In this document: positions 755 to 51,975 of the stretch, one piece after another
Layout of the letters: each line of letters begins with the position of its first letter
How positions within the stretch are numbered: the first letter of the stretch is position 1
Source: Escherichia coli
Lineage (GTDB): Bacteria; Pseudomonadota; Gammaproteobacteria; Enterobacterales; Enterobacteriaceae
Assembly: GCF_022846255.1 (NCBI RefSeq)
Contig: NZ_AP025682.1
Strand: one strand, 5' to 3'
Length of the DNA stretch: 64,000 bases
The notes under the pieces: generated by a model
What the model saw: the letters and a program-made list of their open reading frames with translations, nothing else
Database searches by the model: none
What the model was told of the DNA's origin: nothing
Position numbers and translations under genes: made by a program

Positions 755-785
755 CGGGCCAGCGTGATGCTGGCCCGGTATTGTG
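755..785 (+). terminator. putative intrinsic terminator after gatD (9-bp GC-rich stem cgggccagc/gctggcccg, loop gtgat, then T-containing tail)
   Basis: Perfect inverted repeat immediately 3' of the gatD stop codon, read directly from the sequence. Confidence 0.4.
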
Positions 786-37047: not shown

Positions 37048-37084
37048 GTAGGCCGGATAAGGCGTTCACGCCGCATCCGGCAAG
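37048..37084. repeat. REP palindrome between wzc and wcaA
   Basis: gtaggccggataaggcgttcacgccgcatccggcaag. Confidence 0.55.
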
Positions 37085-40855: not shown

Positions 40856-40890
40856 TTCGAGTTGCAGGAAGTGGGTGAGCGAGGAAAACC

Positions 40891-40922
<32 letters not shown>

Positions 40923-40935
40923 TACGAGGTAAAAC

Positions 40936-46066: not shown

Positions 46067-47503
46067 ATGGCGCAGTCGAAACTCTATCCAGTTGTGATGG
46101 CAGGTGGCTCCGGTAGCCGCTTATGGCCGCTTTCCCGCGTACTTTACCCCAAGCAGTTTTTATGCCTGAAAGGCGATCTCACCATGCTGCAAACCACCAT
46201 CTGCCGCCTGAACGGCGTGGAGTGCGAAAGCCCGGTGGTGATTTGCAATGAGCAGCACCGCTTTATTGTCGCGGAACAGCTGCGTCAACTGAATAAACTC
46301 ACCGAGAACATTATTCTCGAACCGGCAGGGCGTAACACTGCACCGGCCATTGCGCTGGCGGCGCTGGCGGCAAAACGTCATAGCCCGGAGAGCGACCCGT
46401 TAATGCTGGTCTTGGCGGCGGATCATGTGATTGCCGACGAAGACGCGTTCCGTGCCGCCGTGCGTAATGCCATGCCGTATGCCGAAGCGGGTAAGCTGGT
46501 CACCTTCGGCATTGTGCCGGATCTACCTGAAACCGGATATGGCTATATTCGTCGCGGTGAAGTGTCGGCGGGCGAGCAGGATACGGTGGCCTTTGAAGTG
46601 GCGCAGTTTGTCGAAAAACCGAATCTGGAAACCGCTCAGGCCTATGTGGCAAGCGGCGAATATTACTGGAACAGCGGTATGTTCCTGTTCCGTGCCGGAC
46701 GCTATCTCGAAGAACTGAAAAAATATCGCCCGGATATTCTCGATGCCTGCGAAAAAGCGATGAGCGCCGTCGATCCGGATCTCGATTTTATTCGTGTGGA
46801 TGAAGAAGCGTTTCTGGCCTGCCCGGAAGAGTCGGTGGATTACGCGGTCATGGAACGCACGGCAGATGCCGTTGTGGTGCCGATGGATGCAGGCTGGAGC
46901 GATGTCGGCTCCTGGTCCTCTTTATGGGAGATCAGCGCCCACACCGCCGAGGGCAACGTTTGCCATGGCGATGTGATTAATCACAAAACTGAAAACAGCT
47001 ATGTGTATGCCGAATCTGGCCTGGTCACCACCGTCGGGGTGAAAGATTTGGTGGTAGTGCAGACCAAAGATGCGGTGCTGATTGCCGACCGTAATGCGGT
47101 GCAGGATGTGAAAAAAGTGGTCGAGCAGATCAAAGCTGATGGTCGCCATGAGCATCGGGTGCATCGCGAAGTGTATCGTCCGTGGGGCAAATATGACTCT
47201 ATCGACGCGGGCGACCGCTATCAGGTGAAACGCATCACCGTGAAACCGGGCGAAGGCTTGTCAGTACAGATGCACCATCACCGCGCGGAACACTGGGTAG
47301 TGGTCGCGGGAACGGCAAAAGTCACTATTGACGGTGATATCAAACTGCTTGGTGAAAACGAGTCCATTTATATTCCGCTGGGGGCGACGCACTGCCTGGA
47401 AAACCCGGGGAAAATTCCGCTCGATTTAATTGAAGTGCGCTCCGGCTCTTATCTCGAAGAGGATGATGTGGTGCGCTTCGCGGATCGCTACGGACGGGTG
47501 TAG
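46067..47503 (+). CDS. manC: mannose-1-phosphate guanylyltransferase (CpsB/ManC)
   Basis: 478 aa; nucleotidyltransferase ([11 protein letters not shown]) plus C-terminal cupin domain. Confidence 0.95.
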
Positions 47504-47603
47504 CCGTTGAATAATCAACCGGATTAATTCTCCGGTAAATAACGAAAAAACAAAATTGGCCGTTTCGGTCAGGGCCAACTATTGCCTGAAAAAGGGTAAC
47601 GAC

Positions 47604-48974
47604 ATGAAAAAATTAACCTGCTTTAAAGCCTATGATATTCGCGGGAAATTAGGCGAAGAACTGAATGAAGATATCGCCTGGCGCATTGGTCGCGCCTATG
47701 GCGAATTTCTCAAACCGAAAACCATTGTGTTAGGCTGTGATGTCCGCCTCACCAGCGAAACCTTAAAACTGGCGCTGGCGAAAGGTTTACAGGATGCGGG
47801 CGTCGATGTGCTGGATATTGGCATGTCCGGCACCGAAGAGATCTATTTCGCCACGTTCCATCTCGGCGTGGATGGTGGCATTGAAGTTACCGCCAGCCAT
47901 AACCCGATGGATTACAACGGCATGAAGCTGGTGCGCGAGGGGGCCCGCCCGATCAGCGGTGATACCGGACTGCGCGATGTCCAGCGTCTGGCAGAAGCCA
48001 ACGACTTCCCTCCCGTTGATGAAACCAAACGCGGTCGCTATCAGCAAATCAATCTGCGTGACGCTTACGTTGATCACCTGTTCGGTTATATCAACGTCAA
48101 AAACCTCACGCCGCTCAAGCTGGTGATCAACTCCGGGAACGGCGCAGCGGGTCCGGTGGTGGACGCCATCGAAGCCCGCTTTAACGCCCTCGGCGCACCT
48201 GTGGAATTGATCAAAGTGCACAACACGCCGGACGGCAATTTCCCCAACGGTATTCCTAACCCGCTGCTGCCAGAATGTCGCGACGACACTCGCAATGCGG
48301 TCATTAAACACGGCGCGGATATGGGCATTGCCTTTGATGGCGATTTTGACCGCTGTTTCCTGTTTGACGAAAAAGGGCAGTTTATCGAGGGTTACTACAT
48401 TGTCGGTTTGCTGGCAGAAGCGTTCCTCGAAAAAAATCCCGGCGCGAAGATCATCCACGATCCACGTCTCTCCTGGAACACCGTTGATGTGGTGACTGCC
48501 GCAGGTGGCACGCCGGTAATGTCGAAAACCGGACACGCCTTTATTAAAGAACGTATGCGCAAGGAAGACGCCATCTACGGTGGCGAAATGAGCGCCCACC
48601 ATTACTTCCGTGATTTCGCTTACTGCGACAGCGGCATGATCCCATGGCTGCTGGTGGCCGAACTGGTGTGCCTGAAAGGAAAAACGCTGGGCGAACTGGT
48701 GCGCGACCGGATGGCAGCGTTTCCGGCAAGCGGTGAGATCAACAGCAAACTGGCGCAACCCGTTGAGGCGATTAACCGCGTCGAACAGCATTTTAGCCGT
48801 GAGGCGCTGGCGGTGGATCGCACCGATGGCATCAGTATGACCTTTGCCGACTGGCGCTTTAATCTGCGCTCCTCCAACACCGAACCGGTGGTGCGGTTGA
48901 ATGTGGAATCGCGCGGTGACGTGCCGCTGATGGAAGCGCGAACGCGAACTCTGCTGACGTTGCTGAACGAGTAA
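47604..48974 (+). CDS. manB: phosphomannomutase (CpsG/ManB)
   Basis: 456 aa from ATG at 47604 ([14 protein letters not shown]...); active-site TASHNP motif. Confidence 0.95.
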
Positions 48975-48985
48975 TGTCGGATCTT

Positions 48986-49010
48986 CCCTTACCCCACTGC
49001 GGGTAAGGGG
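48986..49010 (+). terminator. stem-loop between manB and wcaJ (cccttacccc-actgc-gggtaagggg); possible intra-operon attenuator or RNA-processing hairpin
   Basis: Perfect 9-10 bp inverted repeat read from the sequence; no clear U-tract, so function is uncertain. Confidence 0.3.
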
Positions 49011-49028
49011 CTAATAACAGGAACAACG

Positions 49029-50423
49029 ATGACAAATCTAAAAAAGCGCGAGCGAGCGAAAACCAATGCATCGTTAATCTCTATGGTGCAACGCTTTTCA
49101 GATATCACCATCATGTTTGCCGGACTATGGCTGGTTTGCGAAGTGAGCGGACTGTCATTCCTCTACATGCACCTGTTGGTGGCGCTGATTACGCTGGTGG
49201 TGTTCCAGATGCTGGGCGGCATCACCGATTTTTATCGCTCATGGCGCGGTGTTCGGGCATCGACAGAATTTGCTCTGTTGCTACAAAACTGGACGTTAAG
49301 CGTGATTTTCAGCGCCGGACTGGTGGCGTTTAACAATGATTTCGACACGCAACTGAAAATCTGGCTGGCGTGGTATGGACTGACCAGCATCGGACTGGTG
49401 GTTTGCCGTTCGTGTATTCGCATTGGGGCGGGCTGGCTGCGTAATCATGGCTATAACAAACGCATGGTCGCCGTAGCGGGGGATTTAGCCGCCGGACAAA
49501 TGCTGATGGAAAGCTTCCGTAATCAGCCGTGGTTAGGGTTTGAAGTGGTGGGCGTTTACCACGACCCGAAACCGGGCGGCGTTTCTAACGACTGGGCGGG
49601 CAATCTGCAACAACTGGTCGAGGATGCGAAAGCGGGCAAGATTCATAACGTCTATATCGCGATGCAGATGTGCGACGGCGCGCGAGTGAAAAAACTGGTC
49701 CATCAACTGGCGGACACCACCTGTTCGGTGCTGCTGATCCCCGATGTCTTTACCTTCAACATTCTCCATTCCCGTCTCGAAGAGATGAACGGCGTACCGG
49801 TGGTGCCGCTGTATGACACGCCGCTTTCCGGGGTTAACCGCCTGCTAAAACGTGCGGAAGATATTGTGCTGGCGACGCTTATTCTGCTGCTGATCTCCCC
49901 GGTGCTGTGCTGTATTGCGCTGGCGGTAAAACTCAGTTCACCAGGACCGGTTATTTTCCGCCAGACTCGCTATGGCATGGATGGCAAGCCGATCAAAGTG
50001 TGGAAGTTCCGTTCGATGAAAGTGATGGAGAACGACAAAGTGGTGACCCAGGCGACGCAGAACGATCCGCGCGTCACCAAAGTGGGGAACTTTCTGCGCC
50101 GCACCTCGCTGGATGAATTGCCGCAGTTTATCAATGTGCTGACCGGGGGGATGTCGATTGTCGGTCCACGTCCGCACGCGGTGGCGCATAACGAACAGTA
50201 TCGCCAGCTCATTGAAGGCTACATGCTGCGCCATAAAGTGAAACCGGGCATTACCGGTTGGGCGCAGATTAACGGCTGGCGCGGCGAAACCGACACGCTG
50301 GAGAAAATGGAAAAACGCGTCGAGTTCGACCTTGAGTACATCCGCGAATGGAGCGTCTGGTTCGATATCAAAATCGTTTTCCTGACGGTATTCAAGGGCT
50401 TCGTTAACAAAGCGGCATATTGA
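49029..50423 (+). CDS. wcaJ: undecaprenyl-phosphate glucose phosphotransferase WcaJ (initiating transferase)
   Basis: 464 aa; polyisoprenyl-phosphate hexose-1-phosphate transferase C-terminal domain (PGITGWAQINGWRGETD). Confidence 0.93.
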   Translation: MTNLKKRERAKTNASLISMVQRFSDITIMFAGLWLVCEVSGLSFLYMHLLVALITLVVFQMLGGITDFYRSWRGVRASTEFALLLQNWTLSVIFSAGLVAFNNDFDTQLKIWLAWYGLTSIGLVVCRSCIRIGAGWLRNHGYNKRMVAVAGDLAAGQMLMESFRNQPWLGFEVVGVYHDPKPGGVSNDWAGNLQQLVEDAKAGKIHNVYIAMQMCDGARVKKLVHQLADTTCSVLLIPDVFTFNILHSRLEEMNGVPVVPLYDTPLSGVNRLLKRAEDIVLATLILLLISPVLCCIALAVKLSSPGPVIFRQTRYGMDGKPIKVWKFRSMKVMENDKVVTQATQNDPRVTKVGNFLRRTSLDELPQFINVLTGGMSIVGPRPHAVAHNEQYRQLIEGYMLRHKVKPGITGWAQINGWRGETDTLEKMEKRVEFDLEYIREWSVWFDIKIVFLTVFKGFVNKAAY

Positions 50424-50424
50424 T

Positions 50425-51903
50425 ATGAGCTTACGTGAAAAAACCATCAGCGGCGCGAAGTGGTCGGCGATTGCCACGGTGATCATCATCGGCCTCGGGC
50501 TGGTGCAAATGACCGTGCTGGCGCGGATTATCGACAACCACCAGTTCGGTTTGCTGACTGTGTCGCTGGTGATTATCGCGTTGGCAGATACACTTTCTGA
50601 CTTCGGTATCGCTAACTCGATTATTCAGCGAAAAGAAATCAGCCACCTTGAACTCACCACGCTGTACTGGCTGAACGTTGGGCTGGGGCTTGTGGTGTGC
50701 GTGGCGGTGTTTTTGTTGAGTGATCTCATCGGTGACGTGCTGAATAACCCGGACCTGGCACCGTTGATTAAAACATTGTCGCTGGCGTTTGTGGTGATCC
50801 CCCACGGGCAGCAGTTCCGCGCGTTGATGCAAAAAGAGCTGGAGTTCAACAAAATCGGCATGATCGAAACCAGCGCGGTGCTGGCGGGCTTCACTTTTAC
50901 GGTGGTTAGCGCCCATTTCTGGCCACTGGCGATGACCGCGATCCTCGGTTATCTGGTCAATAGTGCGGTAAGAACGCTGCTGTTTGGCTACTTTGGTCGC
51001 AAAATTTATCGCCCCGGTCTGCATTTCTCGCTGGCGTCGGTGGCACCGAACTTACGCTTTGGTGCCTGGCTGACGGCGGACAGCATCATCAACTATCTCA
51101 ATACCAACCTTTCAACGCTGGTGCTGGCGCGTATTCTCGGCGCGGGCGTGGCAGGGGGATACAACCTGGCGTACAACGTGGCCGTTGTGCCGCCGATGAA
51201 GCTGAACCCAATCATCACCCGCGTGTTGTTTCCGGCATTTGCCAAAATTCAGGACGACACCGAAAAGCTGCGCGTTAACTTCTACAAGCTGCTGTCGGTA
51301 GTGGGGATTATCAACTTTCCGGCGCTGCTGGGGCTGATGGTGGTGTCGAATAACTTTGTACCGCTGGTCTTTGGTGAGAAGTGGAACAGCATTATTCCGG
51401 TGCTGCAATTGCTGTGTGTGGTGGGGCTGCTGCGCTCAGTGGGGAACCCGATTGGTTCGCTGCTGATGGCGAAAGCGCGGGTCGATATCAGCTTTAAATT
51501 CAACGTATTCAAAACCTTTCTGTTTATTCCGGCGATTGTTATTGGTGGGCAGATGGCGGGCGCAATCGGCGTCACGCTTGGCTTCCTGCTGGTGCAGATT
51601 ATCAACACCATTCTGAGCTATTTCGTGATGATTAAACCGGTTCTTGGTTCCAGTTATCGCCAGTACATCCTGAGTTTGTGGCTGCCGTTTTACCTCTCGC
51701 TGCCGACGCTGGTGGTTAGTTCTGCGCTGGGCATTGTGCTGAAAGGGCAACTGGCGCTGGGGATGCTGCTGGCGGTGCAAATAACCGCGGGCGTGCTGGC
51801 GTTTGTGGTGATGATTGTGCTGTCACGCCATCCGCTGGTAGTGGAAGTGAAGCGTCAGTTTTGTCGCAGCGAAAAAATGAAAATGCTTTTACGGGCGGGG
51901 TGA
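50425..51903 (+). CDS. wzxC: colanic acid repeat-unit flippase WzxC
   Basis: 492 aa polytopic membrane protein of the Wzx/MOP family. Confidence 0.92.
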   Translation: MSLREKTISGAKWSAIATVIIIGLGLVQMTVLARIIDNHQFGLLTVSLVIIALADTLSDFGIANSIIQRKEISHLELTTLYWLNVGLGLVVCVAVFLLSDLIGDVLNNPDLAPLIKTLSLAFVVIPHGQQFRALMQKELEFNKIGMIETSAVLAGFTFTVVSAHFWPLAMTAILGYLVNSAVRTLLFGYFGRKIYRPGLHFSLASVAPNLRFGAWLTADSIINYLNTNLSTLVLARILGAGVAGGYNLAYNVAVVPPMKLNPIITRVLFPAFAKIQDDTEKLRVNFYKLLSVVGIINFPALLGLMVVSNNFVPLVFGEKWNSIIPVLQLLCVVGLLRSVGNPIGSLLMAKARVDISFKFNVFKTFLFIPAIVIGGQMAGAIGVTLGFLLVQIINTILSYFVMIKPVLGSSYRQYILSLWLPFYLSLPTLVVSSALGIVLKGQLALGMLLAVQITAGVLAFVVMIVLSRHPLVVEVKRQFCRSEKMKMLLRAG

Positions 51904-51975
51904 ATGGCTGTTTTCGGTTCCGGCAACGAACACAACAAACATAGCCTCACCTGGCATCAAATTTATGAGGAAAAA

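Follow-up and report, generated by a model that had tools for sequence, protein, structure and literature searches.

Stable hairpins between cistrons are known to protect the 3' end of the upstream mRNA, and the conservation of such 3'-protective hairpins has also been described (PMC5927463). The REP/BIME hairpin of malE-malF belongs to this type, being a stable stem-loop in a short gap between co-transcribed genes and lacking a U-tract (PMC5927463). Hairpins that protect the 5' end of the downstream mRNA have precedents as well, and in papBA the intercistronic hairpin lies directly upstream of the ribosome-binding site of the downstream gene (PMC5927463). Another group of palindromes, designated BoxC, PIT or TMECO, consists of intrastrand-triplex repeats found in E. 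coli and other Enterobacteriaceae (Bergler 1992; Hoyne and Maher 2000, 2002; PMC4666352). The TMECO pattern is composed of CCCTCNCCC, 3-6 nt of any sequence, GGGNGAGGG, 3 nt and a second GGGNGAGGG, with one mismatched pair allowed (Holder 2015, PMC4666352). Triplex formation by BoxC was seen in vitro, and the element has been linked to genomic variability; the PIT/BoxC elements were reported to possess neither terminator nor promoter activity and to leave transcription without detectable change (PMC4666352). Partial deletion of palindromic BoxC sites is common and leaves a hairpin, no function is known for these sites, and Salmonella was reported to be without TMECO repeats altogether (Holder et al., PMC4666352). 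Within polysaccharide operons, a stem-loop attenuator located after wzc has been described for cps and colanic-acid clusters (PMC2516531, PMC3438125).

The hairpin analysed here is located in the 54-nt gap between cpsG (manB) and wcaJ in the colanic-acid operon of E. coli, at positions 48985-49010 on the plus strand of the window (the whole 64-kb stretch of DNA that was analysed). This operon is barely expressed in standard laboratory culture. An earlier note on this DNA had given the same length for the gap, and the cpsG stop at 48972-48974 and the wcaJ ATG at 49029 agree with it. The note had also claimed a perfect 10-bp stem with a 5-nt loop. Both of its 10-mers are present and do form a hairpin in the gap, but the pairing as claimed is one base out of register: the two 10-mers are not exact reverse complements over 10 nt, and the correct structure consists of nine perfect base pairs plus one U·G pair, closed around a 6-nt loop. 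The features of the junction are as follows.

48985-49010, plus strand: hairpin of 10 pairs with a 6-nt loop, identified by RNAfold and covariation
48986-48994, plus strand: pyrimidine-rich 5' arm CCCTTACCC, read from the sequence and differing from the BoxC outer arm CCCTCACCC only at position 5
48995-49000, plus strand: loop CACTGC, the most variable part both within E. coli and between genera
49001-49009, plus strand: purine-rich 3' arm GGGTAAGGG, equal to the BoxC outer arm GGGTGAGGG except for the partner of the changed 5'-arm base
48972-48974, plus strand: stop codon TAA of cpsG (manB), 10 nt upstream of the hairpin
49011-49028, plus strand: unpaired linker and wcaJ ribosome-binding region, with AGGA at 49019-49022 and containing ACAGGAACAACG
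49029-50423, plus strand: wcaJ coding sequence for undecaprenyl-phosphate glucose phosphotransferase, the cistron downstream of the hairpin
47604-48974, plus strand: cpsG coding sequence for phosphomannomutase, the cistron upstream of the hairpin

The sequence of the window between 48980 and 49016 is GATCTTCCCTTACCCCACTGCGGGTAAGGGGCTAATA, and the whole junction from 48972 to 49031 reads TAA TGTCGGATCTT CCCTTACCC CACTGC GGGTAAGGG GCTAATAACAGGAACAACG ATG. By RNAfold, a single hairpin was predicted, in which the closing pair U48985·G49010 is followed by nine Watson-Crick pairs between CCCTTACCC (48986-48994) and GGGTAAGGG (49001-49009), with CACUGC as the loop. With a folding energy of -17.1 kcal/mol (z = -3.7), it was more stable than every one of 200 dinucleotide shuffles. 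The Shine-Dalgarno sequence of wcaJ is left unpaired in the minimum-energy fold. The identity of the flanking genes was taken from E. coli RefSeq genomes 97-99% identical to the window, in which the two open reading frames are annotated as cpsG and wcaJ.

In the 64-kb window, a custom count of perfect hairpins of at least 9 bp gave 5, against 1.9 expected under a Markov model; the same model predicts about 0.002 such hairpins for a 54-nt gap. The exact hairpin motif has a single occurrence in the window, where 0.01 would be expected. The cpsG-wcaJ hairpin is not a chance feature. A permissive cmscan of positions 47000-51000 (E up to 10) gave no Rfam match at the hairpin; the only real hit in this interval was the algC RNA motif (RF02929) at 47550-47599 on the plus strand (78.2 bits against a gathering threshold of 33.8, E = 7e-17), which places it in the 100-nt gap between cpsB and cpsG, immediately before the phosphomannomutase gene. 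The RefSeq record of K-12 carries only coding sequences here, and since even a known REP is left out of it, the missing annotation of the hairpin is uninformative. No published account of the cpsG-wcaJ hairpin was found in a literature search. In its presumed function it is comparable to a REP-type protective hairpin, and by position and sequence it is related to BoxC.

Several other elements were noticed in the window. A classic REP palindrome, GCCGGATAAGGCGTTCACGCCGCATCCGGC, lies in the wzc-wcaA gap at about 37052-37081 (plus strand), where Iguchi et al. (2011, PMC3158064) had located a REP, and sits at the junction of the described post-wzc stem-loop attenuator. The REP copy number is variable at the wzxC-wcaK junction (PMC3158064), where the gap at 51904-51975 (plus strand) is about 72 nt long, if the K-12 wcaK start is assumed, against 275 nt in K-12 MG1655. 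The wcaD-wcaE gap at 40856-40935 (plus strand) measures 80 nt against 10 nt in K-12 MG1655, and about 630-730 of 5426 E. coli genomes carry an insertion of about 70 nt (containing GGGTGAGCGAGGAAAACCAACGCACATGCAGCTTGAAGTATGACGGGTAT) here. This insertion may resemble part of an ERIC/IRU element. A perfect hairpin, CGGGCCAGC-GTGAT-GCTGGCCCG, is located at 755-777 (plus strand) directly after an open reading frame ending at 749, and is possibly a terminator. Between 2951 and 2980, a 12-bp palindrome consisting entirely of A and T was detected, AAATATAATAAT-CATGCC-ATTATTATATTT.

The distribution of the hairpin was then determined in 5426 complete E. coli genomes. In K-12 MG1655, the identical sequence is found on the minus strand of NC_000913.3 at 2,121,574-2,121,597. 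The cpsG-wcaJ junction was found in 4669 genomes, while the remaining 757 gave no megablast match to the 601-nt junction. The short hairpin allele is carried by 4129 genomes (about 76% of all), and short and BoxC-containing alleles make up about 88% and about 11%, respectively, of the junction-bearing genomes. Within the short allele, the 36-nt core matches that of the window exactly in 2162 genomes, with one mismatch in 1811 and with two in 156; it occurs at a median of one place per E. coli genome and once in the window. In all ten variant alleles sampled, a stem of at least 8 bp is kept, with folding energies between -13.6 and -18.0 kcal/mol, and the changes fall mostly in the loop or the flanks. 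The loop variants within E. coli include CATTGC, TACTGC, a 5-nt loop and an extra C at the boundary between 5' arm and loop; the stem variants among these ten are a change of the basal U·G to U-A, the loss of one outer pair, and a 1-base deletion that shifts the register of the 3' arm.

About 10% of the E. coli genomes (about 509) have, in place of the short hairpin, a gap of 125-135 nt with a full BoxC repeat. This long allele includes CCCTCGCCCCTTTGGGGAGAGGGCCGGGGTGAGGGG, a sequence identical at every letter to TMECO #3 of MG1655 (Holder et al. 2015), together with a degenerate inverted copy upstream of it, and belongs to a dispersed repeat found at a median of 6 places per genome (maximum 15). 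In the long allele, the positions of the short hairpin's arms are taken by the outermost arms, CCCCTCACCC and GGGGTGAGGGG, from which the short ones are one compensated pair (C-G to T-A) apart. A simple insertion or deletion does not account for the two E. coli alleles, as some 37 nt in one correspond to some 118 nt in the other and their inner flanks are not the same. The CpsG and WcaJ protein accessions around both alleles are sometimes identical, and the short and long forms therefore look like old alleles shuffled by recombination.

We then compared the short hairpin with the TMECO pattern. Its first blocks, CCCTTACCC, a 6-nt loop and GGGTAAGGG, have the right geometry, and position 5 is a T/A pair instead of C/G. 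The second G block expected 3 nt after the first is absent, the stem being followed by GCTAATAACAGG, and a search of the whole window for GGGNGAGGGNNNGGGNGAGGG with up to two mismatches gave no match. Membership in the TMECO or triplex class was rejected for the short hairpin on account of this missing third block; as both the third block and the multi-copy distribution are missing, the hairpin should not be filed as TMECO. The positional homology to BoxC is nonetheless clear from the allelic long forms of E. coli and from the occupation of the same gap in 27 of 73 species (see below). Like BoxC, the hairpin has a pyrimidine-rich 5' arm, a purine-rich 3' arm, a 9-nt GC-rich stem and a loop within the 3-6 nt range, and its arms differ from CCCTCACCC/GGGTGAGGG by a single compensated pair. 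Unlike BoxC, it is single-copy, is devoid of the second G block and of triplex potential, and fails the strict pattern at position 5; it is also conserved in Salmonella, where the TMECO family is reported to be absent. Judged from these sequence comparisons, the hairpin is a minimal single-copy relative of the BoxC palindromes, resembling the BoxC outer stem.

The same gap was examined in other Enterobacteriaceae. Among the GTDB species representatives with WcaJ, 80 loci were collected, of which 74 have cpsG as the upstream neighbour and 73 a usable gap. A hairpin of -12 kcal/mol or stronger was found in 72 of the 73 species, Salmonella included; the only weak gap was that of Citrobacter sp. 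MGH106 (-7.5 kcal/mol), all others reaching -12.4 kcal/mol or stronger. Three types of occupant were distinguished. In 33 species, the gap is short (39-67 nt) and holds one simple hairpin, mostly of the pyrimidine-arm/purine-arm type. In 27 species, the TMECO pattern was matched with up to three substitutions, often as nested or double inverted units. The other 13 carry degenerate BoxC-like sequences or unrelated hairpins. The arms CCCTTACCC/GGGTAAGGG are shared by Escherichia, Salmonella arizonae, Citrobacter sedlakii and C. amalonaticus, while the C. freundii complex carries CCTTTGCCC/GGGCAAAGG or CCTTCGCCC/GGGCGAGGG and Kosakonia carries CTCTCCCC/GGGGAGAG. In Lelliottia, Leclercia, Silvania, Enterobacter mori and E. 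soli, the sequence is CCCTCTCCC-N3-GGGAGAGGG, which corresponds to the BoxC inner stem. The sequence ACAGGAACAACG just downstream of the stem is near-invariant across genera. The cpsG-wcaJ gap is as long as 357 nt in Enterobacteriaceae bacterium UBA5654 (L060) and 247 nt in RIT714 (L035), and holds tandem BoxC-like arrays (repeats beginning with GGGCCGGGGAGAGGGGGAGCGTTTA) in both, indicating that the slot can expand as well as shrink.

Selection on the pairing was tested by scoring the 10-pair helix in 15 aligned sequences from Escherichia, Salmonella and Citrobacter. Pairing was kept in 98% of the pair cells, and three pairs were changed on both sides (11 cells). No shuffle of this alignment reached the observed pairing or the observed number of two-sided changes, and when the 3' partner was moved by 1-3 columns, pairing was 44-66% with only 0-1 pairs changed on both sides. 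At fourfold-degenerate sites of the adjacent codons, the identity of Salmonella and Citrobacter to the window is only 62-77%, and thus unselected decay should have broken many pairs; the corresponding identities are 17-67% for the loop and 50-100% for the flanks. These sequence comparisons indicate that the hairpin pairing has been under selection across Escherichia, Salmonella and Citrobacter.

For the wider set of genera, a MAFFT alignment was found to be out of structural register, and was replaced for pair counting by the alignment to a covariance model built from the 15 sequences. The model matches only this junction at each locus, in more than 50 species, and once per strand in the window. 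In this alignment 96% of cells are paired and compensatory changes are seen in 7 of the 10 pairs, counts that lean towards the structure because the alignment was fitted to it. The earlier note had proposed conservation as a check; the structure is kept with compensatory substitutions across genera, and the objection that the hairpin might not be conserved therefore fails. With respect to the strand, the sense hairpin was more stable than the antisense one in 50 of the 73 species and less stable in 20, with a mean difference of -1.85 kcal/mol (Wilcoxon p = 5e-4, the species not being independent samples), and on the sense strand the wobble pairs read U·G. Covariation alone does not distinguish an RNA hairpin from a DNA palindrome, and the strand asymmetry favours RNA structure; as the species are not independent, the support is modest, and we infer with corresponding reserve that the selected form is the sense RNA rather than DNA.

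These observations bear on two explanations in which the hairpin has no role in the mRNA of this operon. One is that it is a neutral or selfish remnant, a BoxC outer stem whose palindrome is maintained by template switching or by gene conversion between the arms and which has no operon-specific role. The full BoxC/TMECO units occupying the same slot in about 509 E. coli genomes and in 27 of 73 species, the arms only one compensated position away from the BoxC outer arms, and the partly deleted BoxC sites known to leave hairpins without known function (Holder et al., PMC4666352) are all consistent with such an origin. We consider this explanation unlikely, however, since the hairpin is single-copy, three compensated pairs persist while fourfold-degenerate sites have fallen to 62-77% identity, the hairpin is kept in Salmonella, reported to lack the repeat family, and has been lost in almost no lineage, and the wobble and strand asymmetry favours sense RNA. 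The other is an element acting at the DNA level, as an intrastrand triplex, a cruciform or a palindromic protein-binding site. Kinship with the triplex-forming BoxC (PMC4666352) and the polymorphism of the junction in E. coli would agree with it, but the third G block needed for a triplex is absent, and what is conserved across genera is pairing rather than arm sequence, which makes a sequence-specific protein site unlikely. Of all readings considered here, this one appears the least probable.

Compensatory substitutions have preserved the structure across genera, which makes a functional RNA likely, and of the roles proposed in the earlier note, that of an element for mRNA stability or processing appears to fit the hairpin best. 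We tentatively favour one form of this role, which may well be correct: a selected sense-strand stem-loop in the colanic-acid mRNA that blocks 3'-to-5' exonucleases. In such a mechanism, endonucleolytic cleavage downstream of the hairpin would be the first step; the 10-bp GC-rich hairpin would then stall the 3'-to-5' exonucleases PNPase and RNase II, and the part of the transcript from wza to cpsG would outlive the wcaJ-wzxC-wcaKLM part, as in the case of the malE-malF REP hairpin. The locus resembles the malEFG type in having a stable, conserved stem-loop between cistrons and no promoter-like site nearby, and shares with the REP/BIME of malE-malF the short gap, the co-transcribed genes and the lack of a U-tract (PMC5927463). 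It differs from REP/BIME in having no similarity to the REP consensus and in not being repeated in the genome, and a protective effect at this site is presumed by analogy. Membership in the REP family itself was rejected, the hairpin being single-copy and unlike the wzc-wcaA REP GCCGGATAAGGCGTTCACGCCGCATCCGGC. An exonuclease barrier is favoured because any stable stem suffices for it, in keeping with the different hairpin types that replace one another freely in the slot. What speaks against it is the reported lack of a transcriptional effect of BoxC/PIT elements (PMC4666352) and the weak hairpin of Citrobacter sp. MGH106. In the Term-seq and decay supplements of PMC7815308 and PMC5927463 that were searched, neither cpsG nor wcaJ is listed.

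The hairpin could instead serve the downstream cistron, either by protecting the 5' end of the wcaJ mRNA after an upstream RNase E cut, as in papBA, or by insulating the wcaJ ribosome-binding site from cpsG translation and so setting the WcaJ level. Its position directly upstream of the ribosome-binding site is like that of the papBA hairpin (PMC5927463), the 5'-protective precedents belong to the same literature, and the Shine-Dalgarno sequence is unpaired in the minimum-energy fold. In most simple-hairpin species, moreover, the stem ends at a near-constant distance of 18-21 nt before the ATG, just outside ACAGGAACAACG. This constancy may reflect only the conservation of the ribosome-binding region, and the distance is 22-48 nt in species with long BoxC alleles. 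In addition, inspection by eye of the 10 nt between the cpsG stop and the stem revealed no RNase E motif (RN|WUU), and in this respect the junction is unlike papBA. A role for the downstream cistron is doubtful, and the exonuclease barrier is favoured over it by the REP in the same operon and by the lack of an RNase E motif next to the stem.

The earlier note had also suggested a partial terminator. In the form of an intrinsic terminator or attenuator lowering transcription of wcaJ-wcaM, this would be in keeping with a GC-rich hairpin inside an RfaH-dependent operon and with the post-wzc stem-loop attenuator described for cps and colanic-acid clusters (PMC2516531, PMC3438125). The hairpin is like this attenuator in lying at the boundary of functional blocks in an RfaH/JUMPStart-controlled polysaccharide operon, but, unlike the attenuator, it lies at the cpsG-wcaJ junction and has no terminator-like U-tract. 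The absence of a U-tract, which the note itself had recorded, was borne out on scanning both strands: the GC-rich stem is followed by CUAAUAAC, within the downstream sequence CUAAUAACAGG. A terminator scan on both strands and a promoter scan detected nothing at the hairpin site. Neither E. coli nor any ortholog has a U-tract, the sequence 3' of the stem being A-rich in all, and PIT/BoxC elements are without terminator activity (PMC4666352). The absence of the U-tract in every ortholog rules against an intrinsic terminator, and we regard this suggestion as very improbable. Its framing, by which the hairpin would set the ratio of precursor-synthesis to polymerisation genes, was loose, since the polymerase gene wcaD lies upstream of the hairpin; the genes downstream are those for the initiating transferase (wcaJ) and the flippase (wzxC), followed by wcaK, wcaL and wcaM.

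The colanic-acid operon consists of about 20 genes, whose products are needed in very different amounts, and WcaJ uses up the scarce carrier undecaprenyl phosphate. With a conserved hairpin just before wcaJ, the mRNA of the upstream sugar-nucleotide genes could plausibly be made to last longer than that of the membrane-protein genes downstream. The practical import is modest: anyone engineering the cluster should either keep the hairpin intact or change it on purpose. For the BoxC family, the locus links a single-copy hairpin maintained by selection to a dispersed repeat, and the natural short and long alleles of E. coli offer a ready-made comparison for BoxC as RNA structure. It is conceivable, if rather improbable, that the cpsG-wcaJ junction represents an ancient syntenic slot for BoxC-type palindromes, with occupants ranging from minimal hairpins to double BoxC units, which would be selected as Watson-Crick stems in RNA and not as triplexes. 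If true, this would be the first functional reading of BoxC/PIT/TMECO, whose role has been unknown since 1992, namely as modules of intercistronic RNA structure.
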